From the NCBI GenBank assembly GCA_043228905.1, contig JBHGNT010000009.1, positions 3,410,001-3,474,000 of the forward strand: DNA of 64,000 bases, read 5' to 3'. This DNA is from Azolla caroliniana. Taxonomy: Eukaryota; Plantae; Polypodiophyta. The notes under the pieces were generated by a model. It was not told where the DNA came from, made no database searches, and was given only the letters and a program-made list of their open reading frames with translations. How positions within the stretch are numbered: the stretch's first letter is position 1; every line of letters begins with the position of its first letter. This document shows, piece by piece, positions 489 to 62,281 of this stretch. Both the position numbers and the translations under genes were made by a program.

Positions 489-1153
489 TTAGTAGGAAAG
501 ATATTAGGTATTGATCTGCCCTTCCAGAAGGCAAAAATACAAGCCATCCTGTTAGTGCTTGGTGTAACTTTGGCCAGACTAATGCAGTTGTGGCTTCTAA
601 GTGTTGTCTCATGCAAATGTTTATGTCTCACAACCAAACCTGAATCACCAAGATCACCCATGAATAAATTCAGTTATCCTTGGATCGCAAGCATATTAGT
701 TCTCTCCTCTGTATGGAAGCATCTTCTTGTTTTGGATGTCATGGAATGACCTTTGACAATTCACTCATTTGAACTCTTTATTTGCTTATTGTAGTCCAAA
801 TGTCATGAATGTGTACAATTGAAAGGTTTGTTCTCACTCTTTCACATTTCATTTAGACAATCTAATGAAGATTTCACCAAATCATGGATATGATAACGAC
901 TTTTTAGTGGCCAGAACCTCTTGTAAGGGCAATATGCCAAAAAATGTTGTTCAGACTTTATTGATCACCATGATGCCTCTATGAATGCCTATAATTTTTG
1001 TATCTTGTTCTTCATGGCACTGTGGCATTGCTTAAGATTTTGTTAATGTTTGTCATTGTAGCATTTCTTCAAGTTTGAAACAAACATTAACGATCATGAT
1101 TTCTATTTATTATCCGTGCAGAATATCTCGATGAAAACAATAGCTAATATCCT

Positions 1154-2782
1154 TCATATCACTTCAATATGGTTCATTTTCGTTTCAATTATTTTTGCAT
1201 CTTCATGCCTTCCAGTCGCTCTATAGATGTTACTCATGCAAACATAAGTCGCAGCATCCTTGTCATCTAAACTGATTGCATGTTGAAAAGCAAATTCACC
1301 AAGCTCCACGTCTCCCCATTTCTGACAAACACCCAACAAAGTAACCCATATCTGAGGATCAGTAAGAAATGGCATATTCTTGATAACCTCTACAGCCTTA
1401 TACAAGTCACCTGCACGTCCAAACGAATCAACCATGCAAGTATGATGCTCTAAAGTTGGTATTATGTTATAGTTTTTATTCATCATCTCTAAATACATTA
1501 GACATTTCTCCAGTAAACCCCCATGATTACATAAATTAAGCACAATACTGAATGTCACCAAATTTGGATTTTTTCGTTCTGCCATCATTTTATCAAATGA
1601 GTTGAAAGCCTTTCCTTCCTCTCCAAGCTGAGCATATCCTGCAATCAATGTATTCCACGAGATGACATCCTGCTCAGAAAGCTTGCCAAACAATCTTTGT
1701 GCTTCTAAAAAGGCACCGCATTTCACATACATATTAACTAAGGCGTTGACAACATTTTCTTCTTCCAATAAGTCCTCGCTAACAATCTTTGTGTGTATTT
1801 GTTTGCCTTTGAATACAACACCTGTATTGCCACATGCTTTCAAGATGCAAACAATGGTAACCACATTTGTAGAGAGACCCTCAAGTTGCAAACGCTCAAA
1901 GCACTTCACAGCTTCGCTGTCATGTTCATATTGAGCATATCCAGAAATTAGGGAAGTCCAAGAGAATATATCTGGATCAAACAGATCATCAAACACTTCT
2001 TTTGCCTTTCGAATCATACCACATGTAGCATACATATCTATCAAGGCATTGCCGACAATGTTATTTCTCTCCAATAACCTTGCTCGAGTAATTGCAGCAT
2101 GTAACTGTTGGCCTTTGGAAGCATCTCCAACATTGCCACATGCTTTCAAGCCACAAACAAAAGTGAGTGCATCAGGAGAGAGACCCCTCAGTTCTATCTG
2201 TTTAAAGCACTCTAATGCATCCTCATCATGACCATGCTCAATGTATCCTGCAATTAACACTGTCCAAGAAATTACAGTTTGAAATGGCAGCTTCTTGAAA
2301 ACGTCTCTAGCTTTGGCTAGTTCACCACATTTAGCATACATACCTACCAATGCATTTCCAACTATACAATTTTTCTTCAGCAATCCTAGTCTTACAACCT
2401 CATCATGTATTTCTTGGCCTTTACAAGTTTCTCTTATAATACCACAAGCTTTCAGGATGAAAACAAATGTGACAGCAGTAGGACAGATACCACTAAGTCT
2501 CATTTCTTCATAACAAATGAGTGCTTCCTTACCATGCCCGTATTTTGCATACTCTCCAATAAGTATATTCCACGAGGCTGCATCCTGAACTGGAAGCTCA
2601 TCGAAGACAGCATGGGCTTTCACAAATGCACCACATTTGGCATACATGTTGACCAAACTGTTGCCAAGGCAGATATTCATGTCATGAAGAAGCCCCGATT
2701 TCACAATCTCAGCATGTATTCTGCTACCTGTAATCAGGTCTTTCCTCTTCGCACAATCTCTCAGGAGGGAGATCCAAGCCAT
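1154..2782 (-). CDS. Pentatricopeptide repeat protein, PLS class with E1/E2 extension, no DYW (organellar RNA-editing factor type)
   Basis: 542-aa ORF with repeated P-L-S triplets (GNSLVNMYAKCG, SWNILIGEY, TFVFILKACG). C-terminal HHTCMVDSFGRAG...IWVTLLGVCQKWGDVE...AATYVCMSNIY is the E domain. Confidence 0.93.
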   Translation of the reverse strand: MAWISLLRDCAKRKDLITGSRIHAEIVKSGLLHDMNICLGNSLVNMYAKCGAFVKAHAVFDELPVQDAASWNILIGEYAKYGHGKEALICYEEMRLSGICPTAVTFVFILKACGIIRETCKGQEIHDEVVRLGLLKKNCIVGNALVGMYAKCGELAKARDVFKKLPFQTVISWTVLIAGYIEHGHDEDALECFKQIELRGLSPDALTFVCGLKACGNVGDASKGQQLHAAITRARLLERNNIVGNALIDMYATCGMIRKAKEVFDDLFDPDIFSWTSLISGYAQYEHDSEAVKCFERLQLEGLSTNVVTIVCILKACGNTGVVFKGKQIHTKIVSEDLLEEENVVNALVNMYVKCGAFLEAQRLFGKLSEQDVISWNTLIAGYAQLGEEGKAFNSFDKMMAERKNPNLVTFSIVLNLCNHGGLLEKCLMYLEMMNKNYNIIPTLEHHTCMVDSFGRAGDLYKAVEVIKNMPFLTDPQIWVTLLGVCQKWGDVELGEFAFQHAISLDDKDAATYVCMSNIYRATGRHEDAKIIETKMNHIEVI

Positions 2783-3547
2783 GAATCTTTACATCATGTG
2801 TTGTGGAATTCGGCTTCATCTGACTCTCTCTTTCCTGTTAGCAAGATCTCCTCTTGCCAGGATTGGTGACGGCAGCCAGGCTTTCTTACCCATGATGCGG
2901 CTTCCATCATCCAACAACACGCTAGGCCATATACCTGAGTGTATGTATATAAAGTGTAGGGTCAGATATGGGGCTTGGAATTGGATGGCCATGGCCCTGT
3001 TTATTCCATCTGCAGGATGAATGAATGAATGAGGAGAAAAAGGGAGCCCTATATAGAATGAATTCCTAAGAACACCACCGGTATCCAAATCATCTCTGGT
3101 TTCAAATGTTACAAAATATGTTGCCCACATTGAAGGCACTTGCGCACTAACTATCATCCTTGGTGCCTTGGATTAGATGTGGAAGCTTGCCAAGGCCCAA
3201 AGACTGGCAGAGTGTCCCGCCCCCGAGACGGGAGTGGGGTTTGTTGGGTCATGGTTTGGTTGCCTTGCCAATGTGATCTTTCTTTCTTATCTATCTATTA
3301 GAGCCAAAGAAACTTGACATTTTATGCTAGGGGAACATTTGGTTTCATTCCTACCCAAACACGGCCGCGAAAGCATTACACGCATCGTGACCCGGCGGGG
3401 AACTTTCCGGAAAAAATTAAATTCCTGCAGTCATTCTCAGGGACCTCCAAAAAACTGGAATGGCTGACTCAAAAGCAATCCCCCCCATGTGTCTGAATAC
3501 CATTTCTGCACAAAGAACAGTCGCCCAACACGATATGATAGGATCGA

Positions 3548-12789: not shown

Positions 12790-13130
12790 TTACCCTAGTG
12801 GTAAGTTGTTAACACTGCAAGCACCGCATCGTGGGTTCGAAACCCAATCTCCTCACCTCTCTATTATATACTTCATATACTCTTAATTCACTAGATGTCA
12901 TTGTGGAATGTAGGGGTTGAACCCATGACCACATGCACTCCATTGGGCAACCTTACCAAGGTAGCTACATCCATCTCAGCACTCAAAACCCAATCTCCTC
13001 ACCTCTCTATTATATACTTCATATACTCTTAATTTACTAGATGCCATTGTGGAATGTAGGGGTTGAACCCATGACCACATGGTCTCCATTGGGCAACCTT
13101 ACCAACTAAGCTACATCCATCTCAACACAC
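12790..13130. repeat. tRNA-derived (SINE-like) heads; a 146-bp unit is tandemly duplicated; flanked by (CT)n
   Basis: Plus strand: TAGTGGTAAG...GGGTTCGAAACCC (12796-12845). Minus strand in each unit (12840-12985, 12986-13130): GTAGCTTAGTTGGTAAG...GGTCATGGGTTCAACCCC (A and B boxes). Confidence 0.7.
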
Positions 13131-16100: not shown

Positions 16101-19100
16101 AGAGATCATACAATGTTTTAAACCCAGTTAACCAAAATTCTTGTGGTGGATAAACAATCCTATAAAGTTACGACATCTCAATGCAAAGAAGTTGATAATT
16201 GGATCAACTCAACACTATAGAGCCATATTCTAAATTATCATCATTGCCTCCACCTCTCAATTTGCCATAACCTATTTCACTAACGCTACTTTACCAAAAG
16301 AGGGGTCTATTGTTTTGAGAAGCCTAGCTTGAAAAACGATTAAAAAGCCTATATTTTGGGATGTAGAACTAGGTGCACTTTCATAAATTACAAATAATCA
16401 TGTGTGTGTGTGTTGGGGGGGGGGGGGAGTTCTTAAAATGACCATTTGGCATTTTTACCGTGATGTGCCATATACATAAAAGAAATCTATTCGCCCGCTT
16501 CAATATCCTCGCATAGTTGTTTTCATGTGTAATTTCAATGTAACATTCAATCATATATGGTAATTTCATTGTAACATTCAATCATATATGGTAATTTCTT
16601 CTCTCATATACTTCCCATCACATGTGGTAATGCATAAGCCATCAATATAATCTACAATTTACGTTTGTATACTTCAAATAGTTTTGACTATGGCAATATA
16701 TTTTTCGTTATTAACCTTTTAGAAAATATCCTAAATATCCCCTAAATACTAACAATATTGATGGTTCCAACCCATTATAATAGTTTGTCGTTAAAAAACA
16801 TGGTTAATTACAACAAAATAAGCTGCCAATGCTTACCCTTCATGATCATCATCTAATAGGAGACTATGCATTTGGTCAATGTGGAGGTTTTGCAAGCACT
16901 TTGCAAGTATGAATTAAGTTGGATTGTTTGGATTGAAAATCTTATTAGCTAGCTCAAAAGATTATAAACCAATAATTAAACCTTGTATGAGTTCACTTTA
17001 GTTGTCATGAATCAATGAACAAATTGTTTTAAGGCTATGATCAAGTGACAAAAAATTTTGAGAGAAGAAAGTGTATTGAATGCATGATGTTTATATAACA
17101 AAGGCCACAAGGCAGAGGGAAAATTCAACAAGGGAGATTTATGATGGGTGAAAATTAAAGCTAAAAGGTTATAAAAAATAATTAATCTTGTTAGAGTTTA
17201 CCTTACTTGTTATTAACCCATTAACAAACTACCAAAAGGATAGGAACAAGGGACAAAAAGTACTAGTCAGAAAATCAAGCATTACATTGACTACATGATT
17301 GGTACCATAAAGGGCACAACGAAATGAGAAGAATTGAGGAGAACAACACGATATTGAAATAGAAAACTAGACCTAGATTGAAAACTCCTTTATATAGTGT
17401 AACCTATTAACTATCTTGAATTTTACAGGAGACATTCAATATGGTTGTCAAAGTAGAAAACTAGACCCAAATTGGAAAACTCCTTGATTTAGTGTGGTGT
17501 ATTACAAAAAGCAATCACACCTAACAATTGTGCAACATGGGTAGCATAAATTTGTTATTACTAGAAATAATCCAATTTGCTTCCAAAATGGCCACCAAGT
17601 CGATCTCCTATGGAAACATCACATTTGCATCCAAATCTTGAGACTTTGGACATAACTATGGTGCTATTGAAATCACATGGAGAGAACCTCATGCTCTCCA
17701 CCTGTCCAAGTACTTCTTACACACTTATAAGTTATAGGATATTTTATTGCCATGGGAGTTCACGAAAAACACAACTGAAAGTTTTGCGCATTGCTCTAGT
17801 TCACAACATTGGTGCCAAGTGAGGGAATTTTAGGACTTATCGCACTTGATCTGATTACATTAATCGTTGTTGTGATGAGTAAGTGTGGGTCTCAAGTCAC
17901 TCCTAATCCTATCAACAGATGTTGGCAAATTAACAAGTAAGATTTAAACTTAACTTTTAAGACATAGACTAGAGACTTAAACTTAGTGAAGATTCTTTAA
18001 TAACTTAAATATTAACGTTAAACTACTAACACAGTAAACAAGGAAAGCAATGGAAGAACGCAACAAAGCACTCGATTGAGAAATATGGGACCAGTCTTCA
18101 AGAGTTACACCCAACCCATAACTTAATATTAAGACGAACATGATACCCCAACTTTAAAGACCACGTAATACTTCAAGATATAAAAACACTTACATCTCCA
18201 CTCCATGCAATTCGGGAAGCCTCTAAGGCTTATTAAGTGAAACTAAAATTGACACACACCTAATCACTACAACAATTAAGAAATATGTTTGTCTAAATTA
18301 AATAGATTAGAAACATATGACATAATAGATAATTGCTAATCAAAGAACATGTATATATGAATTTCCTAAAGGTCTTTTTCACATGAGAGCTCTAGCCCAT
18401 TTTATGCCCAACCGATGGTCGTGCCCTACTTACCTGCTGTCGTTGATGGTGGTGCAAATCCTCTTGAGGGATGTTTAGGGATTGCCGCTTCTGCCACAAT
18501 AGTTGTAGAAAAGTTGATTGTCTTTATCAGCCTACATGCTACAGCCAGCTCAGTTGCCGCAATCAACCTCCCAACGTCCTCCATCACCCCGGTCTTCCTC
18601 GATGCAACGACGAACCAAGAACAGTTATTGCGCTATCGCGAATAGTCTAATCAGGGCTCCCATGCAACTAACTCAGATATCCCACCTATTTTGGACAGCG
18701 TAGTAGAGCTTCTATTGAGAAAAGGACAATTCGAAAATATGTGTAAGATGGACACATTACATCTTCTTTCCCGGAATGTGCAAGGCCTGGGTGGTCATGC
18801 TTTTCGCAAATGTAAAGGACTCTTAGGCTCAAATTTAGGTACTACTAATGTAGGTACTATTGATATTTTTTTTCTACAAGAGCATCACATGTGCACGGAT
18901 AGGATTGGGAAGTATGGATCCATTTTACCAGGACGGTGGATTCATTTATGGTTTCTTGCCTTTGGCCCCACTGGCCTCTAGGCTGGATTATGCATTGCTC
19001 TTAAACACCATTTACAATCTATCATCATGTCAGTTGCTACTATTAATATGAATAAACATGCACAATTCCTTATTGTAAAAATAGGATCCTAGAAGGTTGA

Positions 19101-20369
19101 CCTTATGAATCTCTATGCTCCTAATTTTGCGTTAGAAAGGGTAGGTTTATGGCTATCTCTTTTTTAATTATGCGAGTTTAGCATATTGTTGGTTGGTGGG
19201 AGAACACGTTTGCGTTCACAAGTGGAAGGATTGCGCATTCCACTTATAGATTCCTTTTATAATCTTGCGATTTTAGACTATTTTCAAAAACTTGATACAC
19301 CAGTATCACATGTTTTAAATAGCATGTAAAAATTTGCTAGTTTTTTGAGATTTACAAGTTTCAAAATGATCATTTCTAAAATGGAATAGTTTTTCAATAA
19401 ATGTTTAAATTTTGATGGTTTGTAGATATGAAATGTAGTTAACTTAAAGAAAATCACAATGGTCAACTCAAGGCACAAGTTAAGGTTAATGGTTTCACCA
19501 TCTTGAGGAGATTAAGATTACATCTATTGTTAGACTTGAAAATGTTTTAACTATAAAAGGTAACATTGCAATCCTTAATGTCATCATCTATAAATTAATG
19601 CTCACTAACATCCATAAATTCACAACTCAAGAAATGTAGACAATATTCATAAACAATTTTGATAAATCCAAAACTCCTAAAATGTAGACGATATTCATAA
19701 ACTGTCAAACTTTAGATGTGAACATTAATATATCAATTTGAACATAACACATAGTTATCAGGGTATCTACAATGTTATCGTGTTCTTCCTTATAAGAATT
19801 CCCCTTCAAAATTTGTGACGTAATGGCATTTGCAAAGTTCAGTTACCATCAACAGAATTATTAATGGTTTTCTGAATCTAATAAATGAAGCACATGTTTA
19901 CCATAAGGTATTTTGTTGTGCAACATACATCTTTAAAAACCTCTTTTATTTGAAAAACAACAATAGTTTTAAACATGAACACGATATGTTGTATTGAGTT
20001 GATGTAAAAAATAGAGTTTTCATCATAATTCTATACAATATATTGAGTTCATGTTCAAAGTTTTTTTACCGAATTAAACAAAAATAATAAAAATTATAAA
20101 TTAAGCTTGAGTTCATAGAAAAACTAGATTTTTCATCACAATTCGATATAATGTATCGAGTTCATGTTTAAAGTAATTTTTTCAAATTTTTAAATTTTTT
20201 ATTTTCAATTTGTTTCAAAATTTTTTATTTTTTTTCAAATTTTTTGATTTATTTTTATTTTTTATGGAAAAAATAATAATTTAAAACATGAACTCGATAC
20301 ATTGTATCGACTTGTGATAAAAAGTCTGGTTTTTTCATCACCTATTAAAGCACAAAAAAACTTTCTAAG

Positions 20370-20610
20370 ACAGTGACGAAATTAGTACTAAGAGAGAAAT
20401 ATTAGTACTAAGAAGAATAGAAGGTGTAGAACACTTGAGAAAAGAAGAGAGAGAGAGAGTGAGAGTGAGAGAGGGACTAAGTGGGAATGATGATGACAGC
20501 GATATATTATGTGAGAAGAATATACAATGAAGGCTAAGAGGCTTAAGTCTGGCGTTGAACCGATTTGGTTCGAAATAATGCCTTGTGGCTCCTTTGATAG
20601 TGTTCTAAGG
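20370..20610 (-). mobile_element. Chromovirus LTR fragment related to the LTRs at 46524/51842
   Basis: GGCTTAAGTCTGGCGTTGAACCGATTTGGTTCGAAATAATGCCTTG is near-identical to the reverse complement of 46715-46760; TTAGTACTAA repeats and the (GA)n tract are also shared. Confidence 0.85.
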
Positions 20611-20624
20611 CTTGCTAAAGTAGT

Positions 20625-20985
20625 TGAAAATGAAAATATTCTTTGTATTACAATGTATGGTTTAATGGTTAGGAACTTGACCCATGCAATGTTAGGTCAT
20701 GGGTTCAAGTCTCACCTTACCATGACATGAAGAAAACTAACATTTTTAGATGAAAAAATCACGCTTTTAAACATGAACTCGATACGCCGTATCGAGTTCA
20801 TGTAAAAAAGCAGCTTTTTTACATGATCGAGTTCATGTTTAAAAGCATGATTTTTTCGTGCAAAAGTATTAGTTTTGTTTCATGTCATGGTAAGGTAGGA
20901 CTCGAACCCATGACCTTACGCTCATGGGTCCAACTCCTAACCATTAGACCATATATTGTAACACAAGATAAAATCATTTTTAGAA
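20625..20985. repeat. ~350-bp inverted repeat with convergent tRNA-like heads
   Basis: Left arm ATGGTTTAATGGTTAGG...GGTCATGGGTTCAAGTC...CCTTACCATGACATG is mirrored at 20880-20960; a third head lies at ~21315-21390 (-). Confidence 0.85.
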
Positions 20986-21264
20986 ATATTATCAACACTA
21001 AGAATACTATATTAGCTTTTTAACATGAACTCGATACGCCGTATCGAGTTCATGTAAAAACGTTAGCTTTTCAACATGAACTCGATACGGCGTATCGAGT
21101 TCATGTTTAAAAGCGTGATTTGTTACATGAACTCGATACGGCGTATCGAGTTCATGTTTAAAAGCGTGATTTGTTACATGAACTCGATACGCCGTATCGA
21201 GTTCATGTAACAACTCGATACGGCGTATCGAGTTCATGTAAGATACGGCGTATCGAGTTCATGT
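20771..21264. repeat. Array of the 33-bp palindrome ACATGAACTCGATACG(C/G)CGTATCGAGTTCATGT
   Basis: Full copies at 20771, 21023, 21074, 21125 and 21176 (51-bp period in the cluster); truncated copies at ~21212 and ~21242; decayed copies at 19972-20320 and 21484-21640. Confidence 0.95.
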
Positions 21265-22661
21265 TTAAAAGCGTGATTTGTTCATTTAAAAAAATTTAGC
21301 TATATTGAAATCATGATATGGTAGGACTTGAACCCATGACCTAATACTTCATGGGTCTAACTCTTGACCACTAGACCACTAGACCATACTTCATATTTCA
21401 TGGGTCTAACTCTTGAAGTTTCTAAAATTATAAATAAAAATTCGAAAAAAAAATTGAAACAAATTAGAAAAAAATACTTTAAGCATGAACTCAATACATT
21501 ATATTGAATTGTGATGACAATTATGGTTTTCTAGATGAACTCAAGCACAAATTATTATTATTATTATTTTTTAAATCTAGTAAAACAAACTTTGAGATTA
21601 TTATATCGAATTGTGATGAAAATTATGGTTTTTTGGATGAACTCAGATGACAAGGAAACTTGCAAGAACTCAAGATGGGGATATTAATAGCTACACATGT
21701 AGATGGCCATGACCTAGGGTACCAATTCGGCATTGGTAAAGTTTTGGACGTGATGATGCATTAAACCTTTGTAATACATCTATGATTAACATTAATGAGG
21801 TGGATATCATTATGTATGACTTTACACACACAAAATTTGGATGTTTAAGGACAACAACGATATACATAATAAAAGAGATATTAGCAAGTCTAGAAGATAT
21901 CTCAAATTGAAGGGGAAGAAGATTTACTGCACACAATTTGGTGAAGACAATGATTTGATTGGTACATTGGAAAATGAGGAGGAAGAGTCACGATTGTATA
22001 TTATCTATAGTAGTGATTGTTATGAAAAGAATGATGATAGTCATGCAAATAACTCCCAAATGTATTTGTTGTACAACTATATGTAACAAATTTAGACAAC
22101 ATTTTATCGAATGGAATAAAAATGTTCATTGTTTTGAAGTATTGTACTTTCAATTTCCTTAAGATCTAAAAACTTATTAGCTGTCATTTTTCCTTAAAAA
22201 TCCACAAGTTACTTTTCATATTTGACCCAAATTTGGCATTTTTCAATTTTACCAAATGGTGAAAATTTCAACTTTTTCATCAAGTTTTCGAGAACATGTG
22301 ATACTAGTATCAAGATGTTTTGTGAAATGGCAAAAAAACCCCAAAATCAAACGGAATATTCCTTATCCTTCCACTTATGCGCAATCCTTCCACTTGTGAA
22401 CGCGAACGTGTTGGAGGCAACTTTAATATGATTGAGGATGTTGTTGATAGAATGGGAGGTATAAGCACTACAATTTCAGGATGGGAAGCTAAGTGTTGTG
22501 ACTACTTTTGTTTTGCCTATGGTTTGCTTGACTTATGGAAGGTGCATTCATTTTCACGTATACAAGAATCCCTTGAGTTTCTAGATCAGATGGGAGTATG
22601 GTTGCCACAAATTTGTCTTGACTAGATAGATTTTATGCTAGTAGAGTTTTTTGGAGGGGGG

Positions 22662-25600
22662 TGTAGAGACTCTTGAGTAGGAGAGAGAGAGAGGGAGAGA
22701 GAGAGAGGGAGAGGGAGAGAGGGAGAGAACACAAGAAATGGAAATGAGATTACATTATGAGGAAATAAGTTTACAAAGAGTAGGCTAAGGCTAAAGATTG
22801 GTGTTGAATCGAATGAGTTGTGATGAATGAATAGACACCTATTTATAGGTCCTTATGGAGTATTCTAGAATATTTTAGAATATTTATGATATTTATGATA
22901 TTTATTATAATCATGGAATATCTTAGAATGTTCTAGAACACTCTAAATATCTTGTAATAACTAATAATATAGTTATTATAACTATACATCATATATGTTA
23001 TTATAATGGTTAAAGGTCTAACATATATATAAAGACGTCTTGGGCTCGAATCCTTGTAAAGCAAAAATGTATGTATGTATGACATTATCCCCCTTTTTCG
23101 ATGACAAGTTCCACGAGTCGAAAGACAAGATTTCGGACTTGGCTTATGGGGATATTTGTTGTGAAACACGACAACCATTTTGGAGGCATTAGCAAGATTC
23201 TCGAGAGGTTCCCATGTTTGATCATTAGGTGTATAACCTGACCAGTCAACCAAATAATACAGTTTGTTGTGAACGATCTTGGAGTCGAGAATGATAGCAA
23301 CTTCATATTCGGAGCCATCTGAAACTTTGATTGGAGGTGGGGGAGATGTAAGAAGGCCTGGAATAGAGTTGGTTGTGTACGACTCCAAAAGTGAAACATG
23401 GAAGACCGGGTGAAGATGCATATGAGGGGGAAGATCAAGGTGAAATGCCACATCATTGATCTTACCAGATATCACATATGGGCCAAAACGTTGATAATCC
23501 AATTTGCAGCAAGGTCAGGTTGTTTTAATGCGACCTTGTAAAAGCCATACTCAATCTCCCACTTGAAACGTAGTTGATGAATCATGTCGATGATGGTCGT
23601 CAACCTTCTTTTGAGTGTTTTGAGCATCACATAAATGGTGCAAAAGAATATCTTGAACTTCTTGGAGTCGGGTGAGCCGATCTTCAGTAGCTGGGTTTGT
23701 CAGGAGTTTGAAGATGTTCAAGCATAGTACAATGAGGATGATACCCATTGTTTGCAAAAAATGGGGAATATCCAGTAGAAGAATGTTCTGAGTTGTTGTA
23801 TGCAAATTCCGCCAAATGTAATAGATCAACCCAATCATCTTGTTGATAGTTGACAAAACAACAAAGATATTGTTCTACTGTTTGGTTGGTGCTCTCACTC
23901 TGCCCGTTAGTTTCTGGATGGTAGCCAGAAGAGAGTTTGCAAGAAGTATGTAAGAGTTTGAACATGTGCCGCCAAATTTTTGAGATGAATTGGGGACCCT
24001 AATCACTAATAATATCATCGGGAAGACCATGATGCCAAAACACCTCTCGCATGAGTAACTCGACTGTCTCTTGGCTCGTAATGGCCTTTATGCAAGGAAG
24101 AAAATGTGCCAACTTGGTAAAACGATCTACTACCGTGAGAATAGAATCAAAACCCTTGGAAGGGGGTAGATCTGTAATGAAGTCCAATGAAATAGATTTC
24201 CATGAACTCTCAAGAATAGGCATTGGTTGTAATAAGCCATATGGATGATGTCAAGGTTTTTTGGATCGGCAACATGTATCACAACTACGAACATAATCCG
24301 TAACAAAATGGCGAAGTCGTGACCACCAATACCTTCGAGAAATTAACGCCAAAGTCTTGTGGATGCCGAAATGTCCAAGCATTGCTGTGTCATGATATTG
24401 TTGCAAGACTTGGAGTCGAGAAGGACCATCAGGCACATATAAGAGATTTTGTCAAAAAAGTAAACCATCATGCCAATTGAACTGGTTGTAGTCTTGACGA
24501 GGATTTTGATATTGTGAACAAGAAGCTCGATCTGGGATAATATGGTTCAAAATGTCTTGGGCGAATTCATCAGCCTCAATATGATCCCGAATGGAGTCCA
24601 GAAGACTTGAATCCCCGGGTGTGTCTATAGCATGAAATGCCATTAGTCGTAGACGGTCAGGACCCAAGAGGATTTGCTTCTGACTTTCAAATGTGGCCTC
24701 TCCTAGTTGAAGTTCCATATACGAACGTCGAGATAAAGCATCCGCTTTTCCTTGTTGCATCCCAGGGCGATATAGAATTATGAAATCAAAACAAGTTAAG
24801 AATTGTACCCAACGAGCTTGTCGACGACTCATGACTCGAGCACTTTGGAAGTACGTTAGATTTTTGTGATCATTATAGACAATGATTTGTTGAGACGAAC
24901 CCTCCAAAAAATGATGCCATTGTTGAAAAGAATCCACAATGGCAAGAAGCTCTTTATCATGAATCTCATTGTTGATTTCTGCAACTTCGAATTTCCGTGA
25001 ATGAAAAGCCACATGGTGCAGTTGGCCATCATTGCTAGTCTAGGATAATACGTTGTCGTCAAGATCCGTCACTAGGCGCGGATCGCGAGGCGGAACCGTC
25101 GAGGTTCTGGACTGGAAGGACTCGAAGTTTGCACAAGCTTTGGCGGGAAAGGAATTAAGATAGATTGAAAGAGAGAGAGATTGAGATAAGATAGAACGCT
25201 TGAATTTAGATTGAGAGAGAGATTAAGAACTCTTGACTTTAGATTTCAAGAACAAGGTATATCATCAAAAAGATAACGAATTTTTATCTTAATATTAATT
25301 TTGATTTAAAGTACAAAGCTTTCTTTTTTTTCCCAGAAAAAATCCCCCATTGATCTTTTTCATTCCCTCTTTTATAGATGCCCTCATGCATTTGAGGGTT
25401 AAAGACATGTATAAAATGCATGTTTGCCATTTGGCGCCCATGTATTACATGTGGTGCATGATAACCACATCACTCATTTTAGCTCTCATGTATGAGAATT
25501 TACATGTAAAGTTACAATGATAAAAATATTATTTCAAGAAATTGTCTTTGCTTAGTGGTAAGCCTATAGACTCTCAACTTGGAGGTGCAATGTTCAAATC

Positions 25601-26717
25601 CATACTTGCACTCCTTGTGTGTGTATATATATGTGTATACATATATTTATTCATTTATTTATATATCTATCCGGTCGCCGGTTACCGGATGACGCCAGTT
25701 ACAGGTGGCCGTCGATCGTCGGATGTTGGATACCGATACCGTCGGATCACCGGTTACCGTCTAGTTCTGTTTTGGTTGGCCAAAACCTTTACGAGTGGCT
25801 AGGCCAGTTCAATAGTAAAGTGCATCTATTCAAGATCTTCGTCTTTTGTACTAAGATATTAAACTTACTTAGAATTAGTATATTCACTATTATTATTTTA
25901 TATGATTGACACTTGATTTCCTAAGTCTTATGTGATTTTCACACCATTGCCGAAATCTTCACAACAACGCTTCCTAGTGCGAAGTCGGATGCATTAGCTT
26001 CGAGTATAAAGCGCTTCAATGGATCAACATGCATCAAAATTGGTGCGGATGTAAATGCTTGCTTTAATCCTTAAAATGCAGAGTTTGCATTTATACTCCA
26101 CACAAATGGTCGATTCTTTTGTGTCAGTTGAGTGAGGGGCAATACGATTTTTGAATAATCTTTTATGAACATGCGATAAAAATTTGTGAACCCCAAAAAA
26201 CATTGTACATCTCGCATAGACTAGTGTTTGCCAATTCAAAAATATTTGAATCTTTGCTGGATCCATAGAGATGCCATGTGAAGAGACTATGTACCCCAAA
26301 AGTTCCACTTGACGCTGGTTGAAACTGCACTTCTCCAATTTTGCACAGAGACCATATTCACGCAACCGTTGCAAAGCTTGTCGAACGTGTATATCATGAT
26401 CCTCTTGAGTTTTTGAGTAGATCAAGATATCATGTTGTCGACTGTTTGAACCGAATGAGTTGTGATGAATGAATAGACACATATTTATAGGTCCTTATGG
26501 AGTATTCTAGAATGTTCTAGAATATTTATGATATTTAATATAATCATGGAATATCCTAGAATGTTCTAGAACACTCTAAATATCTTGTAATAACTAATAA
26601 TATATTTATTATAACTATACATCATATATGTTATTATAATGGTTAAAGGTTTAACATATAAACCAAGACGTCTTGGGCTCGAATCCTTGTAAGGCCAAAA
26701 TGTATGTCTTCATGACA
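22662..26717 (-). mobile_element. Degenerate, internally deleted Ty3/Gypsy chromovirus (same clade as the 46.5-52.3 kb element)
   Basis: 3' LTR 22662-23084 with PPT GGGGGATAA; truncated 5' LTR 26446-26717; TSD GGGGG (22657-22661 and 26718-26722); RT, RNase H, integrase and chromodomain (YEVAIILDSK..YYLVDWSGY..TWEP) fragments; gag and protease absent. Confidence 0.9.
25054..25966 (-). mobile_element. Solo LTR (~913 bp) inserted in the RNase H region of the chromovirus
   Basis: TG...CA ends; interrupts host codons DASDFALGS|VLS; imperfect 4-bp flank ACGT/ACGC; TATA and CT-rich tract on the minus strand. Confidence 0.7.
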
Positions 26718-45276: not shown

Positions 45277-46813
45277 TGTAAAGAATCGAGTATGATTCTA
45301 TGCAGCGGAATAGGTTAAAGATGTGTGTGAAAGAGGAGAGAGGAGAGACAGAAGATAGGTTGGAAGATGAAATACTCAAGATGTATATTAACAAGAAGTA
45401 GAATGACACTTACAAAGTAGGAGGAGGGTGCTTTATATAAAGTCACCCTCTCACTAAACCACTCATGCACTCTCCAGAAACTTTGGGAGGGGGGAATCTC
45501 ATTAACTATGTATCATAGAGTGTAACTCCTATTGTTGGGGGCAAGGCCGTCAATGCGGAAGAGTAGACAACGTCTGTGATGGTGAAGAATCTACGTATGC
45601 GAGTTAACACTAGATAAGCACAGAGAGAGAGAGAGAGATAGGCACAAAGAAATAGGATTTTATTTCTCAATAGCAACAACTACAAGAATTACAACCAGCA
45701 GCTACTAACGGGTTACAAAGTCACTTTATATAGTGACTGTCCTAGGGCAACTGCCCTTTGTGCTATTTACAAAAATAGCCCAAACTTGGGCTGTCCAAGG
45801 GGACAGTGTGAATACGGCCATTATACACTCGTATTCGACATTCCCCCGTAATGGGCGTATACATGGGTTATCTAAAGAATTACAGGTATATATACAAGGT
45901 TTATCGGACAGATCGGTTTTGTCAGAGTCGGCAAGATCCGAAGACAGAAGACCGAACCAGTTGGGTCGGAAGAGCTGAAGCCGATCCTCAAAGAACCGAT
46001 GTTGGTGGTCCGAAACCGTCTTGTGTTGTGTGTCCAACTTTAACCGGACCGATTTTTCGTTACGCCCATTTGGTGCCGAAGGGGTCGGAAACGATCCGCC
46101 GAAAGACACTTGGTCATTCTATTTGCGACATTATTGGTTGTGGATATCTTCTCTAGACTGATTTTCCTTGAAATGACGCAGTCTCGAACGAAGTGATATC
46201 GAACGTCGATATGCTTGGAGGCGTTGTGGTGAACTGGGTTTTTTGACAAAGCAACAACACCCTGACTGTCGCTGTAGACAACTGGAGCCGAGTCGGAGTC
46301 GACCTGTCAGAATGTGTGCGCCAGCCGGCCGAGCCATAAAGCTTCTTTTGCCGCGTCGGACGCAGCTACATATTCCGCTTCGGTCGTTGAGGTGGCTGTG
46401 CACTCCTGAAGTTTCGACTTCCACGAGATTGCTCCATTGCTGAATTTGAAACAATATCCGGCTGTTGATTTCCGACTGTTCACACAACCGACGAAGTTTG
46501 AGTCGGTGTAACCGACTACGCATTGTCATAACTAGACTCGAACCCATAACCTTTTGTTACACGGGTCGAGACTTTACCATTAGGTTATGAATTGTAATTT
46601 GAAGGATATTATTTTCATTTAGGTTTTATTAGGAAATTGATGTATATTCCAGATTTCTCTGGAACATTCTAGAAACTTCAGGAGTATTCCTGAAGACACT
46701 ATAAAAGGAGGCGCAAGGCATTAGTTCGAACCAAATCGGTTCAACGCCAGTCTTAAGCCTTCTAACCACTGTTGTATATCTTCCTTCATATAATACATAT
46801 ATCTTTCGCATCA

Positions 46814-46859
<46 letters not shown>

Positions 46860-47095
46860 ACTCATTCCTTCTCTCAAAGTTCGACACCTCTCATAGTACT
46901 AATCCTTCTCTGTCTTAGTACTATTCCCCGACAATAGTACTAATCCTTCTTTTAGTACTAATTCCTTCTCTGCCTTAATAGAGTTCCTGACAGTTTGAAC
47001 CGATTTCTGTCGGTGCCTGTCTGGTTTTTTCTCTCCCTCTTCCTTCTGTCTCCCTCCTTTCCTATTAGTCTCTTATTCCCCTTTTCCTTCATCCC

Positions 47096-48265
47096 ATGGC
47101 CACCGTTAGCGCTGAAGAGTATCAATCCGTTTTCTCGGAATTTCAATGCTTGAAAGAGAAGTTTCATGCTTTGGAACAAGAAAATCAACGCTTGTTGGGG
47201 GATCTTCAGCAAATTTCCTTAGAAAAGCAGCAAACGCAACAACAGCATGGGGAACTTGCGTTACGCGTGCAACAACTCGAAGCAACCATCGTAGCAATGC
47301 AACAACAAGGGCACGGAGCACAAGGGATTCATAAAGAACCCAAGATTGGCCTTCCCACGAAGTTCGATGGAACGCGATCGCAGTTTAGAGGGTTTCTTAA
47401 CCAGGTACGGTTAGTTATTCAAATGCATCCGTCCCGATATCCCACCGATGCATCACGAGTGGGTTTAGTAGGCACGTTGTTAAATGGCTCAGCATTAGCA
47501 TGGTTCGCTCCGCTACTAGAAAAGGAATCTCCAGTACTAAATAATTTTGAAGAATTCATAAGTGAGTTTAAAGCATGTTTTGGAGATACTGACAGCATAA
47601 GGACTGCAATCAATAAAATCCGGCGATTACGCCAAGGTGACCGTCCAGCCTCCGCATATGCTGCAGATTTCCGCCTACTCGCCGCCGATATCCCCTGGGA
47701 TGATCAAGCATTGATGGAACAGTTCCGCTATGGTCTACGCAACGATGTCAAGGATTTACTCTTGACTTTCCCTGAAGAGCCAAAATCATTAACAGAAGCA
47801 ATCAGTCGAGCGGTCAGATGTGACAACCGCCTCTTCGAGCGACGTTCGGAACGACAATTTCAGATGCCGAGGGCAAGATCCGAGCCTACCTATGCCTCAG
47901 TGGTAGCGAAACCTTTTCAAAGGGAGTCACATAATGCGCCTCCAGTAAGTACTCCAACTCCAATGGAAATTGACACTACACGTCGTCGTGGGCCGCTATC
48001 GGAGGAGGAAAAGCAACGACGCCGAACAAACCGATTATGCCTTTATTGCGGTGGACCAGGGCATATCGCGATAAACTGTCCCCATAGACCAAGAAGGCAG
48101 GTAAACCAAGTCGTTGTTAGTTCTGACTATACTAAACCCGAGTCTATTTCAGTAGGAATCTCTGATAGTCCTCATAGTCATAATAGTCCTAATAGTACTA
48201 ATAGTCCGAATCTCGCAAACAAATTTGATATCCTTAGCCAATTAGAAGAAGAGTTAAACGACTAA
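47096..48265 (+). CDS. gag: Gag: coiled-coil N-terminus, PEG10/LDOC1-like capsid, CCHC zinc knuckle
   Basis: 389 aa; EPKIGLPTKFDGTRSQFRGFLNQ, LRQGDRPASAYAADF, PMEID, CLYCGGPGHIAINC. Confidence 0.95.
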   Translation: MATVSAEEYQSVFSEFQCLKEKFHALEQENQRLLGDLQQISLEKQQTQQQHGELALRVQQLEATIVAMQQQGHGAQGIHKEPKIGLPTKFDGTRSQFRGFLNQVRLVIQMHPSRYPTDASRVGLVGTLLNGSALAWFAPLLEKESPVLNNFEEFISEFKACFGDTDSIRTAINKIRRLRQGDRPASAYAADFRLLAADIPWDDQALMEQFRYGLRNDVKDLLLTFPEEPKSLTEAISRAVRCDNRLFERRSERQFQMPRARSEPTYASVVAKPFQRESHNAPPVSTPTPMEIDTTRRRGPLSEEEKQRRRTNRLCLYCGGPGHIAINCPHRPRRQVNQVVVSSDYTKPESISVGISDSPHSHNSPNSTNSPNLANKFDILSQLEEELND

Positions 48266-51200
48266 GTCCAGCCAAAATAGGAGCCGTTTGGTTGGACAGC
48301 CCTAGATCTGTGCAGCCCATTAGTGGTTCCATTCCCTCTAAGCAAGTTAGTGATGTGTTCGTAGCCCAAGTAGCAGTTAGTACTAAAAGTACCCCTCCAG
48401 TACATACCTTAGCCCTTCTAGATTCCGGAGCTAATTCTTGCTTCATGGATAGGAATTTTGCCCGAGCTCATCAGATATCTCTCAGAAAGCTCCCATGTCC
48501 AGCCTCAGTAGTAGTCATTGATGGTCGTCCCATTGCTTCTGGTAATATCATAGAAGAGTCGGAACCCATTAATATTGTCCTAGATAACTTAACATGTGTA
48601 GTATCATTTAATATTATTAGTATTCCAGAACATCCCATAGTTTTAGGATTACCATGGTTCGAGTTACATAACCCAGACATAGATTGGAGGACAAGGGAAA
48701 TCCGGTTGCGACAAACCCAAGGATCTACCCAGAAGGTTGCAACCATTTCGCTACGTCAGTTGCGTGAGGAAGGGCGCAAGGAGGAAATGTTTCTCTTCGC
48801 AATATCAGTACAACCCTCCTGCACCACCAAAGAGGAGTCCACCGTTCAACTTCCCGAGAAGTATCATCAGTATGCTGATGTGTTCGATAAAGTACAAGCC
48901 AACACACTTCCTCATCATCGGCCGTACGATTGCGCCATCGACTTACAACCGGGAAAAGAGCCGCCATGGGGGCCGATCTACAATTTGTCACCAACCGAGC
49001 TAGAAGTCCTTCGAGCCTATATAGAGGAGAATTTGGAGAACGGTTTCATTCGGCATTCGAAATCTCCAGCCGGCGCACCCATTTTCTTCGTCAAGAAAAA
49101 AGATGGCTCGCTTCGACTCGTTGTAGATTACCGTGGCTTGAATAAGGTCATAGTAAGAAATAGGTATGCTCTTCCCCTTATCTCAAGTCTTTTAGAACGG
49201 ATCAACGGTGCCAGGTTCTTCACGAAGATCGACTTACGAGGAGCCTATAACCTCGTACGGATCCGACCAGGAGATGAATGGAAGACCGCGTTTCGCACCA
49301 GATATGGGCACTTCGAGTATACGGTCATGCCGTTCGGACTCACTAATGCGCCGGCAGTCTTCCAGCACATGGCGAATGATATATTTCGAGATCTCTTGGA
49401 TGATTTTTTGATCATCTATTTGGATGATCTACTGGTTTATTCAAAGACCCAAGAAGAACATGATTCTCATGTACTATTAGTACTAAAACGACTTCGAGAA
49501 CATGGTCTGTATGCAAAGTTAGAGAAATGTAGTTTCGGGTGCAACCAAGTGGAGTTTCTCGGCTATGTCATCTCCTCAGAAGGCATATCTATGGACCCAG
49601 CCAAGGTCAAAACGGTGATAGAATGGCACACTCCGCGTTCGGTGCGGGATGTGCAATGCTTCCTAGGCTTTGCAAATTTTTACCGGAAGTTCATACAAAA
49701 TTACTCAAAAATTGTGCTGCCTCTCACACAGCTCACCAGGAAGGGACAATCATTCATCTGGTCTAAAGAGACGGACATGGCTTTCGAGAGTCTTAAGAAG
49801 GCGTTTACATCAGCTCCAATTTTAGGTCATGTGGATCCGGAAAAACCATTCATTATCGAAGCTGACGCATCGGATTTCGCATTGGGGAGCATTCTGTCAC
49901 AACAAGGTAACGACGAGAAGCTACATCCTGTGGCTTTCCACTCCCGTAAGTTTGACGCCGCCGAAATCAACTACGAAATTCATGATAAAGAGCTATTAGC
50001 AATAGTTGATTCTTTTATGCAATGGAGGCATTTCCTGGAGGGATCTCCTCATCAGGTCACTGTATTCAGTGACCACAAGAACCTTGCCTACTTTCAAGAT
50101 GCTCGTGTACTGAATCGACGTCAAGCTCGGTGGGCCCACTTCCTCACACGCTTCGACTTCAAAATTACATATCGTCCGGGGAAGCACCAAGGGAAGGCAG
50201 ATGCATTATCACGGCGTTCGTATCTAACACCACGTCCCGGTGAGCCAGCTTTCGATAACCAGAAGCAAGTAATCTTGGGTCCAGCACGACTGCAAGCAGC
50301 ACAGGTCTTTGACATGCCCGTGGATTCCGACATTACCAATACTATACGTGAGGACTTGAAGACTGACGCTTTCGCCCAAGCTATACTAGCACAAATTGAC
50401 CCCTCTCGAGCGTCATGTTCACAATCACAATCACCAGGTACGGATTATCGGCAATTCAAATACTGTGATGGATTACTCTTCTTTAAAGAACTTTTGTATG
50501 TTCCTAATGGTTCTTGCCGCCTTCGAGTAGTACAAAACTGCCATGACACATATACAGCAGGACATTTTGGTAGTACTAAAACATTAGATTTAGTACAACG
50601 ATCATTCTGGTGGCCCCGTATGCGACAATTTGTCGAAGATTTTGTCCGGACTTGCGATACATGCTGCAGAGCGAAAATGCCAAGACATCATCCATATGGT
50701 TTATTAGAACCATTACCAATTCCAAGCAAGCCATGGCAATCCATTGCTCTTGACTTCATTACAGATCTTCCAGTCTCTAAGGGATTCAGTGCGATTCTCA
50801 CAGTGGTGGATCGATATACGAAGATGGCTCATTTCTTACCATGTACTAAAGAAATATCTAGTGAAGACACCGCCGAAATTGTCATGCGGGAAGTATGTCG
50901 GCATCATGGACTCCCTGATAATATCATCAGCGATCGTGGACCCCAGTTTGTGTCAAAATTCTGGAAGCACCTTTTTAAAATGCTGAAGGTCACTTGTAAC
51001 CTCTCCTCCGGCTACCACCCACAAACCGACGGTCAAGCCGAACGAACAAATCAAACACTGGAGCAGTATCTGCGGTGCTTTCTCAACTATCATCAGAATG
51101 ACTGGGCAGATATTCTTCAGTTCGCCGAATTTGCCTATAATAACGCTATCCACGCATCGACTAAAGTCACGCCATTCTACGCTTATACAGGATATCATCC

Positions 51201-51849
51201 CCGGTGGTGTGTCCTTGAAACCCCAGAAGTGTCCACAAATCCGTGCGCGGAGGATCGTTTGGAGCGGTTACGCAAGATACAAGCGGATTTATCTACTCAA
51301 CTCCAGCAAGCTCAACAATCACACAAGGACTACGCAGATCGTCATCGACTTCCATCCAGTTTTAACATTGGAGATCGGGTGTGGCTGCTACGACGACACA
51401 TCAAGACTACTCGCCCATGTGAGAAGTTGGATTATCGGCGATTAGGTCCTTTCCGTATTATCGGGAAGATTAATGATGTCGCTTTTCGTCTCGAGCTACC
51501 TCCGCAACTTCGGATACATCCGGTGTTTCATAGTTCTCTCCTCGAACCCTATCACGAGAGCACTATCCCAGGACGTACTATACAACCACCACCTCCTATC
51601 GAGCTCGAAGATGGACCTGAGTATGAGGTCGCTGCCATCCTCGATTCCAAGATTGTTCGCAACAAGCTCTACTATCTAGTCGATTGGCTAGGATATAGTC
51701 CCAGCGAGCGTACTTGGGAACCGATCGAGAATGTGACCAATGCTCGTGCTCTTCTAGAAGACTTCCATCGACGATATCCCGAGAAACCGGGTCCTCAATC
51801 CAAAACGACTCGTGGAACTCGTCGTTTTAAAGGGGGGATAGTGTCATAA
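48260..51849 (+). CDS. pol: Pol (PR-RT-RNase H-integrase-chromodomain) in the -1 frame relative to gag
   Basis: LLDSGA, YLDD, DASDFALG, H..H..CDTC, ISDRGPQF, GPF, chromodomain YEVAAILDSK..YYLVDWLGY...TWEP. The frame is open upstream of the called TTG at 48292; the stop lies inside the 3' LTR. Confidence 0.95.
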
Positions 51850-52131
51850 CTAGACTCGAACCCATAACCTTTTGTTACACGGGTCGAGACTTTACCATTA
51901 GGTTATGAATTGTAATTTGAAGGATATTATTTTCATTTAGGTTTTATTAGGAAATTGATGTATATTCCAGATTTCTCTGGAACATTCTAGAAACTTCAGG
52001 AGTATTCCTGAAGACACTATAAAAGGAGGCGCAAGGCATTAGTTCGAACCAAATCGGTTCAACGCCAGTCTTAAGCCTTCTAACCACTGTTGTATATCTT
52101 CCTTCATATAATACATATATCTTTCGCATCA

Positions 52132-52181
<50 letters not shown>

Positions 52182-57967: not shown

Positions 57968-58140
57968 GATGAGAGGTTCTCACCGGGTCTGCAACATCCG
58001 GTTCTCACCGGGTCTTCCTTGCCGGGTACTCGTCATCCGGTTCTCACCGGGTCTGCATCATCCGGTTCTTGGTACTCCACATTTGGTTCTCACCGGGTCT
58101 TCCTTGCCGGGTACTCCACATCCGATTCTCACCGGGTCTT
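57968..58140. repeat. CCGGTTCTCACCGGGTCT sub-repeats in Copia B U3 (also at 63928-64000)
   Basis: About five interspersed copies visible. Confidence 0.85.
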
Positions 58141-58841
58141 CCATTGCTGGGCCTTCGTATCCCATCCGGAGGGACCGAGATCCTAACAAATTCCCCCTTC
58201 ACTCCGGCATGGGAGGCCTCGTCAATCCGATCCGCTTCCGGCATGCATCTAGCTTGTCGGGCGTCAGCACCTTGGTCAGCATATCCGACCCGTTTTCCTT
58301 CGTGTGGATCTTTGTCAGCACGAACTCTCGGTCTTCTACTCGCTCCCAAATCCAGTGGTACCTCCGCTGGATGTGCTTCATCCTGGAATGATACGATGCG
58401 TTCTTCGCAAGGTGGATGGCACTTTGATTGTCGCAATAGAGCCGATATTCCTCTTGCCGGATCCCTAGCTCTTCGATGAAGTCCTTCATCCATAGTATTT
58501 CCTTGCCGGCTTCCACAACTGCCATGTACTCCGCTTCCGTGGTTGACAACGCAACCGTCTTCTGCAGCCTCGATTGCCACAAAACAGCTCCCCCCGCATA
58601 TGTCATGACATATCCGGATGTTGACCGGCTGGTATCCGCATTAGCCGACATATCCAAATCGGTGAAACCGTCAAGTTGGGGTTTACCGGAGCCGAATCGG
58701 AGACACATACTTGAGGTGCCTTTCAAGTATCGGAGTATCCATTTTACCGCATTCCAATGCTCCTTTCCGGGATTGCTCATAAACCGGCTCACCACTCCGA
58801 CTGCATATCCGATATCCAGTCGGGTACACACCATTGCGTAC

Positions 58842-59276
58842 TGTTAAGTAATTAGGTAATTAACTAGGGTTAATTAGAGACTAATTATATAGTTACGTTA
58901 AGCAGCGGAAGATTAGTATGATATGCGCGTGAGAGTGTGTGAGAGGAAGAGAGAGAGAGTAAGTTACACTTATGAACACGAAGATAAATGGGGGATGATT
59001 GACTATATTGAAAATTGTCATCAACTACAAAAATACCCACAATGAGGTATATATACAACCCATGTGCAAAGGTGCACATGTGTGGGTAGAACATAAGTAC
59101 TTATGTGTAAGTCCTACATTAAATGTACTGAGTGGAGGATCTAGAATATCCCACTTAAGTACAAGGTCCTATTTAAAGGCTTAAGGTCAACACATTAACT
59201 AGATTCGATCTAGGTAACTATTAAGTTACATGTGTTGACTAACTAGATTAAACTAGTTGAGCTTGATATCTCAACA
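58842..59276 (-). mobile_element. Solo LTR (435 bp) in Copia B RT/RNase H region
   Basis: TGTT...AACA; TSD CGTAC at 58837-58841 and 59277-59281; splits host GSLMY|AMVCTR. Confidence 0.92.
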
Positions 59277-62200: not shown

Positions 62201-62281
62201 ATCTGGGAGGGAACCGAGCAGGAGTTGTGCTAGTACCTCATCGGCAAGAGGTACTTCCAATGATGTTGCCTGGTGGATCAG

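Follow-up and report, generated by a model that had tools for sequence, protein, structure and literature searches.

The stretch analysed here, hereafter the window, comprises 64,000 nucleotides of the fern Azolla caroliniana (GenBank assembly GCA_043228905.1, contig JBHGNT010000009.1, positions 3,410,001 to 3,474,000). At positions 19203–22412, a 3,210-bp transposable element with terminal inverted repeats (TIRs) interrupts the decayed endonuclease region of a long interspersed nuclear element (LINE). A first-pass annotation, made from the sequence alone, had regarded it as a non-autonomous TIR element, as we do, but one assembled from tRNA-like and palindromic modules. Instead, the element is a deletion derivative of an autonomous element, in which a palindrome array of the partner was retained and re-amplified, while the tRNA-like modules are the captured end of a long terminal repeat (LTR). 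Autonomous members measure 8.8–9.3 kb and carry two genes, one for a transposase and one for a protein predicted to join a ParB-like fold to a DNA methylase (hereafter ParB-methylase), and the partner's array sits in intron 1 of the latter gene.

The Element and Its Insertion Site

The two TIRs are identical at 35 of their 36 bases, and, among the duplication lengths of 1–9 bases tried at the element ends, only 1 and 4 (GGAG) give a match. When the element is removed, the empty site reads through the LINE endonuclease motif WLVGGNFN, in agreement with the annotation, and the motif is uninterrupted, with a single GGAG where the two flanks overlap by four bases, in seven out of seven paralogous LINE copies examined. 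This fixes a target-site duplication (TSD) of 4 bp independently of the element ends. The family name of the host LINE rests on a GDFN-type motif that we take to be characteristic, and a Pfam search of the host LINE pieces returned no match. Since the left arms of the five near-identical copies forming the group of the window element show 0–7 differences per 1500 bases, whereas the LINE paralogues are 80–87% identical, the element is far younger than its host.

Inside the element, the arms are 66–69% identical to those of the partner, and element positions 400–760 score no better than shuffles against it. The annotation had seen no transposase open reading frame (ORF); none is present, but a decayed C-terminus of the transposase is, at 51–67% identity (E 5e-27). 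A methylase remnant was sought in the window element and in 20 siblings, and none was found. The palindrome is a 23-bp site made of inverted 10-bp half-sites, with two natural centre variants, A[AT]T and G[GC]C. Palindrome-type units number 11 in the element, versus a mean of 0.035 in 200 shuffles; the core of the five perfect central units is identical to that of the partner's intron-1 array, and the outer units are both of the A[AT]T type and decayed. Of the 67 CpGs in the element, 29 lie in palindrome cores, and the CpG observed/expected ratio of the arms is 0.25–0.40.

The inverted symmetry pointed out in the annotation was recovered at each scale, i.e., in the subterminal motifs, in the blocks it had placed at 20050–20220 and 21445–21600 (19995–20224 vs. 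21424–21645, 76% identity), in the region 20625–20985 (20597–21010, 75% identical when inverted against itself) and in the palindromes. Folding of 20597–21290 gives a z-score of −49.7, and the Rfam matches to microRNAs, all below the gathering score, reflect these hairpins. The three “tRNA-like” modules align to the end of the LTR of a chromodomain Ty3/gypsy element, and the fetched top matches of the LTR-end module lie inside this transposon family. ARAGORN called no tRNA at default settings (two of the three modules at lowered thresholds) and Rfam none either; along with the LTR-end alignment, these null results led us to reject an origin of the modules from tRNAs or short interspersed nuclear elements.

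Table 1. Coordinates of the element, of its parts and of its host in the window
Feature	Positions	Strand	Remark
Host, left part: decayed LINE endonuclease region	18646..19202	+	paralogues 80–87% identical
Left TSD, GGAG	19199..19202	+	duplication-length test, empty LINE sites
Left TIR, corresponding to the partner's methylase-side end	19203..19238	+	
Arm homologous to the partner's methylase-side end	19239..19602	.	66% over aligned bases
Left subterminal GATAC..GTATC motif, resembling palindrome half-sites	19291..19314	.	
Four older palindrome units with A/T-rich centre, partly decayed (19978, 20027, 20140, 20291)	19978..20313	.	
LTR of a chromodomain Ty3/gypsy family, captured and internally deleted; left border approximate	20360..20729	-	~75% to LTR pair 46524–46992 / 51842–52314
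LTR-end (“tRNA-like”) module 1	20643..20730	-	
Perfect G[GC]C-centre palindrome on the axis of the 20597–21010 hairpin	20776..20798	.	
LTR-end module 2, inverted duplicate of module 1	20880..20975	+	
Five perfect G[GC]C-centre palindromes (21028, 21079, 21130, 21181, 21212)	21028..21234	.	four at 51-bp period
LTR-end module 3	21311..21378	+	
Older palindrome block, inverted copy, unit at 21488	21424..21645	.	
Decayed C-terminal transposase remnant (partner residues 748–924), with stops and frame changes	21639..22017	+	
Right subterminal GATAC..GTATC motif	22293..22314	.	
Right TIR, corresponding to the transposase-side end	22377..22412	-	
Right TSD, GGAG	22413..22416	+	duplication-length test, empty LINE sites
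Host LINE, right part, ended by another LTR element near 22660	22413..22660	+	

Family Census and Relation to Sola1

A 27-mer of the TIR has 729 exact matches (376 + 353) in the 523-Mb genome, and the control has 0, which does not fit the rare family suspected in the annotation, nor is the family undescribed, the Sola1 group being already known. With one mismatch allowed there are 50 right ends, of which at least one belongs to an autonomous copy, while the left arm of the window element has 593 candidates, five of which are nearly identical. The TSD is a perfect 4-bp one in 43 of 45 paired ends (L056, for which one end was not found, is omitted from this count, and copy L066 shows a 5-base match). 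Its composition (n = 43) is 70% A+T, with AWWT in 2/43 and TTAA in 0/43, so that the true 4-bp, non-TTAA duplication of the annotation stands, and the family is not CACTA, hAT or MULE, a match to which the annotation had itself named as a contrary finding. A search for long ORF-bearing copies, also its suggestion, recovered pairs of 7.7–9.3 kb with a Sola1-type transposase.

Several superfamilies were considered and rejected. CACTA/Chapaev, hAT and MULE elements have CAC termini or TSDs of 2–3, 8 or 9–11 bp, neither of which fits the AAC termini and TSD length of the family. PiggyBac and Kolobok are discarded by the TTAA count. Sola2, our first guess, has DFAENY, SDGA..QYKN and FATSHGK motifs in the portion of the alignment considered (PMC3627910, file S10), all of them absent from the ORF. 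Ginger and GingerRoot have TG..CA termini and an rve integrase, versus AAC termini, a 4-bp TSD and no rve match here, and the TSD of GingerRoot is 6 bp long (PMC6839031). Finally, miniature inverted-repeat transposable elements are short and homogeneous in length (PMC3845634), as opposed to variable lengths of 2.5–5.4 kb.

Among the candidates that the annotation had listed, Sola agrees with the data, and, judging from sequence features, the family belongs to the described Sola1-type group, for which a 4-bp TSD is by itself ordinary. Around the second aspartate, the transposase reads D471-N-T-A-R-E-N-K-N-S, in register with D-n-c-a-g-q-N-k-n-s of the Sola1 hidden Markov model (HMM; positions 82–107, PMC5751038 supplement), a comparison made by eye on 26 of 124 positions, without computed score. 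A preference for AWWT targets, which is a hallmark of insect Sola1 (PMC3845634), does not characterize the Azolla family; this separates Sola1 subgroups but does not exclude Sola1, and Sola1-1_Ec32 of Ectocarpus (see below) is also listed without AWWT. A truly undescribed TIR superfamily, composed of tRNA-derived and palindromic modules, would be in line with the non-AWWT TSDs and with the A/B-box-like look of the modules, but it appears very improbable in view of the Sola1 HMM motif, of the AAC termini combined with a 4-bp TSD as in Sola1-1_Ec32, and of the alignment of the modules to LTR ends.

The Autonomous Partner

Sixteen TIR pairs of 7.7–9.3 kb carry the two genes, arranged head-to-head. 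The transposase ORF encodes 927 residues with a match to DUF7869 (E 1.8e-51), and the ESM Atlas returned DUF3723 clusters at 0.96, while a sequence search of the PDB gave nothing useful. Relatives occur in Ceratopteris (60%), Riccia, Chara and marine animals. VIA-align places the structural model among transposases of the DDE type and integrases, with Z 8.7 against Metnase, Mos1 and intasomes (root-mean-square deviation 2.5–3.5, 129–163 aligned); the best E from Foldseek is 0.006, and D390/D393, D471 and D513 are conserved at 90–100% in 47 sequences. As modelled, the protein is a DDE transposase with an RNase H-like fold. Residues 246–325 yield winged-helix-like matches and residues 747–864 (ORF at 659–3442 of copy L041), a predicted C-terminal barrel, weak BAH-like ones, with Z 5.4–6.5 for the two regions together; those of the barrel to BAH domains of DNMT1/MET1 (Z 5.4–5.9) make it possibly a chromatin reader. 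This barrel is also the part surviving as a remnant in the window element. The ratio of nonsynonymous to synonymous substitution rates (dN/dS) of the transposase is 0.27–0.34 in four comparisons.

The ParB-methylase gene, as predicted in L041, has six exons, five out of five introns bounded by GT-AG, and 974 codons without stops. A search with exon 5 by itself reached only E 0.5. The C-terminal half of the protein matches N6_N4_Mtase (PF01555, E 3e-8, above cut-off) and displays motif IV (DIPY, at 692) ahead of motif I (FSGTG, near 852); it is predicted to be a beta-class N6/N4 DNA methyltransferase, and the Ginkgo homologue matches the adenine methylases CcrM, MboIIA and RsrI. For the N-terminal half, Pfam found no match in the ParB-fold part, whereas the model (predicted local distance difference test score 82) obtained 13 Foldseek matches at E ≤ 0.001, those listed all being ParB or Noc, and appears to have a ParB/Srx fold ahead of a helical DNA-binding region. 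The ParB-fold region features GGSHS, of which G95, H98 and S99 are invariant in 28 sequences. Homologues were found in Ceratopteris (71%), Ginkgo and Adiantum, the one of the seed plant Ginkgo being the annotated gene Gb_10123. With dN/dS values of 0.10–0.15 in all eight comparisons with divergent copies, the gene is under purifying selection. When L041 is compared to L073, L088, L071 and L087, the synonymous divergence of exon 2, which encodes the ParB part, reaches 0.57–0.60, far above that of the transposase (0.14–0.17) and the divergence of the introns (~85% identical), which suggests that the ParB part was exchanged as a module between subfamilies.

The Palindrome Array in the Two Lineages

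The genome holds 2120 perfect palindromes, and the first 50 sites fall into 14 clusters that all belong to this family, 11 near an exact TIR and three beside gene remnants. Autonomous and gene-less lineages have the same core and share the 51-bp period (71/97 and 51/114 spacings), whereas only 18 bases out of 28 are the same between the spacers of the gene-less copies and those of the partner, spacers and arms having diverged by 31–36%. On visual comparison, spacers flanking G[GC]C units look more like the A[AT]T spacers of older gene-less copies than like those of the partner, which argues that the array was inherited within the lineage rather than recently copied whole from the partner. A mere decay of G[GC]C units into A[AT]T units was partly rejected, since 150 of the latter are perfect and uniform A[AT]T arrays exist in older subfamilies. 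Among the five closest copies, the number of central units varies from 4 to 8. Elsewhere, next to the gene remnants of other subfamilies (L133, L135, L136), A[AT]T or G[GC]C units form long arrays whose period is 31–41 bp, not 51. At L140 (1700–2700), a distant relative, whose methylase is 51% identical, has its transposase gene interrupted by a gene-less copy; the intergenic region of this relative holds, by eye, only decayed AACTCGAT-N7-ATCGAG-like sites, with a different centre.

History of the Non-Autonomous Lineage

Right arms of 39 non-autonomous copies and three autonomous outgroups were used for a tree, leaving out L118 as well as the truncated or rearranged L083, L084, L085, L113, L114, L116, L117 and L120. 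Eleven of the 39 had been picked by palindrome search and are thus biased in this respect, the other 28 having been picked by ends or arms. All 28 carry at least six units; outside the tree, L083, L084 and L116 have none and L113 has two. The two basal copies retain methylase remnants and are followed by successive clades devoid of both methylase and LTR, with A[AT]T-centre palindromes. The LTR piece appears in a derived group of 22 (support 88/85, within a 100/99 clade), in which 21 copies have G[GC]C-centre units, as young autonomous copies do, and the window copy belongs to the youngest clade (100/100). Because single G[GC]C units also exist in the older copies L125 and L055, the shift of centre may reflect drift in a mixed array and not convergence.

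This natural deletion series, in which the genes were lost and the array kept, is what is new here. In the open-access literature, we found no land-plant report of the gene pair and none of a gene-less derivative that keeps the array, while Repbase or closed supplements could hold one.

Possible Role of the Array

Why would an element without genes keep such an array? In our preferred reading, which we hold to be somewhat probable, a gene-less Sola1-type deletion derivative, moved in trans, keeps it because the partner's ParB-methylase protein binds it and helps the ends. The partner transposase would, very probably, recognise the shared 36-bp TIR and make a 4-bp staggered cut, thereby mobilising the derivative in trans. 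The ParB-fold protein would probably bind as a dimer to the inverted 10-bp half-sites, which recur with the 51-bp period. Then, with about even chances, the bound protein might spread or bridge to the ends and either write N6-methyladenine (6mA), a mark proposed because adenine methylases are the closest relatives with a solved structure, or make the chromatin accessible to the transposase. As a gene-less element has nothing to transcribe and no gain from a promoter mark, the benefit of the array would have to lie in transposition. That the array acts in transposition itself has, in our view, about even chances, and the case for it depends on this one argument: without any gene to serve, the sites were kept and multiplied through several waves while the adjoining bases drifted and the arms lost CpG. 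The fold-back look would come from inverted duplication and slippage around hairpin-forming sites, along with a captured LTR end that was co-amplified. More tentatively, the transposon might run a parS-like system for its own mobility, in which the ParB-methylase docks on the array of 51-bp period and licenses the ends by a bacterial-type methyl mark. Gene-less parasites such as the window element would then keep the array, its centre shifted from A[AT]T to the G[GC]C form of the partner active at present, so as to exploit this second protein in addition to the transposase. If true, this would make the non-autonomous series the first evidence from nature for an array requirement in cis in transposition.

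Several observations weigh against the preferred reading. Where the ParB-fold region has GGSHS, canonical ParB presumably has a patch of arginines that bind cytidine triphosphate (CTP), which makes a CTP clamp doubtful. The methylase motif is DIPY instead of DPPY, and DALY in the Adiantum homologue. Both frames are open in only two of the 16 autonomous copies, with all motifs in one, and a direct autonomous parent of the window element was not found among the 50 loci fetched for it and for related checks, the best homologue being 59% identical to the remnant. In older decayed copies, the TSD is perfect in 9 of 15 end pairs. One finding speaks for the reading, but is a single case: an autonomous-length copy that had lost its array did not amplify, since of 641 candidates, 40 of which were scored, no other copy spans its deletion junction. 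In autonomous copies, palindrome CpGs are mutated as often as other CpGs (18/824 vs. 133/6510, p = 0.79), so that no footprint of a shielding of the array from 5-methylcytosine (5mC) was found; moreover, transitions at CG/CHG sites are 3–12 times above those at other sites, indicating that inserted copies are silenced normally. For other adenine methylases carried by transposons, heterologous assays gave negative results in the part of the report cited here (10.64898/2026.05.21.726589). Lastly, hairpin instability alone could explain the persistence of the array.

This last point leads to a first rival, in which the array is a by-product without function in the gene-less element: the gap repair that gives rise to non-autonomous copies would stall or switch template at hairpins, so that deletions stop at the array, which is thereby spared and inversely duplicated, and slippage would expand the units. 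The varying unit number among copies that hardly differ in their left arm, the centring of the symmetry on the arrays, the co-amplification of a foreign LTR end and the lack of CpG protection at palindromes are all expected from such a process. Nevertheless, hairpin repair keeps symmetry, not one particular sequence, and half-sites have stayed identical to those of the partner across successive subfamilies while the spacers drifted; we therefore deem the by-product explanation unlikely. In a second rival, the transposase itself would bind the palindromes as internal enhancers, with the ParB-methylase acting elsewhere, e.g., at the partner's promoters. The related GATAC..GTATC motif lies 85–110 bp from both ends, the transposase has the winged-helix-like and weak BAH-like matches mentioned above, and binding by it would equally explain why gene-less copies retain the array. 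On the other hand, the array is located in an intron of the ParB-methylase gene, and in the red-algal Plavaka, with its unrelated transposase, tandem inverted repeats recur beside ParB-fold genes, as far as the cited part of the report goes (10.1101/2025.02.11.637652). Binding by the transposase hence looks rather improbable, even more so than a by-product, and binding by the ParB-methylase remains our preferred reading.

Comparison with Known Systems

The N-terminal part of the partner protein has a predicted fold like that of bacterial ParB–parS and Noc (7bnr, 7nfu, 6t1f). It differs in that their presumed CTP arginine motif is absent and in that the protein is fused to a methylase, eukaryotic and spliced. 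ParB sites are palindromic and occur in several copies (10.1101/2025.02.11.637652). Sola1-1_Ec32 is a Sola1 element with a 4-bp TSD, AAC termini and a ParB-like plus N4/N6 methyltransferase gene on the opposite strand, for which its authors propose self-modification (PMC12477816). By description only, it shares the gene pair, the termini and the TSD length with the Azolla family, but it comes from a brown alga, measures 21.5 kb and has an imperfect TIR of 282 bp; in the main text, the string “palindrom” has 0 occurrences, and the passages cited here describe no array-keeping non-autonomous lineage (PMC12477816). In Bostrychia, the giant Plavaka (EnSpm) DNA transposons with PAG2/PAG3 carry a ParB-like gene beside tandem inverted-repeat arrays and a PF01555 methylase; they belong to another superfamily and to a red alga, and the genes are separate, one joining ParB to a 2OG oxygenase and the other joining the methylase to SET (10.1101/2025.02.11.637652).

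In the VANDAL/VANC system of Arabidopsis, the short targets of the accessory protein are fast-changing, subfamily-specific tandem repeats in introns or upstream (PMC5735166). Those elements are MULEs, their targets are non-palindromic, and VANC is neither a methylase nor a ParB; furthermore, binding and demethylation have been demonstrated for VANC (PMC5735166), whereas binding is a prediction in the Azolla family, which has no anti-5mC footprint. DAM-carrying retrotransposons exemplify a prokaryote-type adenine methylase on a eukaryotic transposon, but they are retroelements and the enzyme is of the Dam type; none of the terms “ParB”, “Sola” and “land plant” occurs in that text (10.64898/2026.05.21.726589). 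Sola1 is listed in a non-flowering land plant, Physcomitrella (PMC9033089, Table 1), and the methylases of Iyer 2016 and of the Marchantia DN4MT1 preprint are of other clades.

Altogether, in the parts of these reports cited, ParB/methylase genes on transposons are proposed to mark the element that carries them, prior reports offering only the gene arrangement. A gene-less lineage with kept palindromes points to a role in cis in transposition, and not only in transcription. The family also provides a natural reporter: the 3.2-kb element is compact and has intact ends, its defined 23-bp site comes naturally in two versions, and a young partner retains two open frames. With these, it can be tested directly if transposons write 6mA or N4-methylcytosine in land plants, and to what effect.

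Other Features of the Window

A young chromodomain Ty3/gypsy element occupies 46524–52314, with LTRs 99% identical and long, open gag-like and pol ORFs. On the minus strand, the 5′ end of its LTR has the look of a tRNA-type A/B-box promoter; the same look is found in L083 and, more weakly, in the LTR near 22660–23080. At 22660–26717, a decayed Ty3/gypsy truncates the host LINE, its LTR-like repeat (22804–23084 vs. 26446–26717) being 91% identical. The region 57528–64000 is richer in GC and contains tandem units of 25–54 bp, as well as large direct and inverted repeats (57528–58046 vs. 63466–64000, 94%). Finally, a 146-bp tandem duplicate at 12840–13128 weakly matches the LTR-end module.

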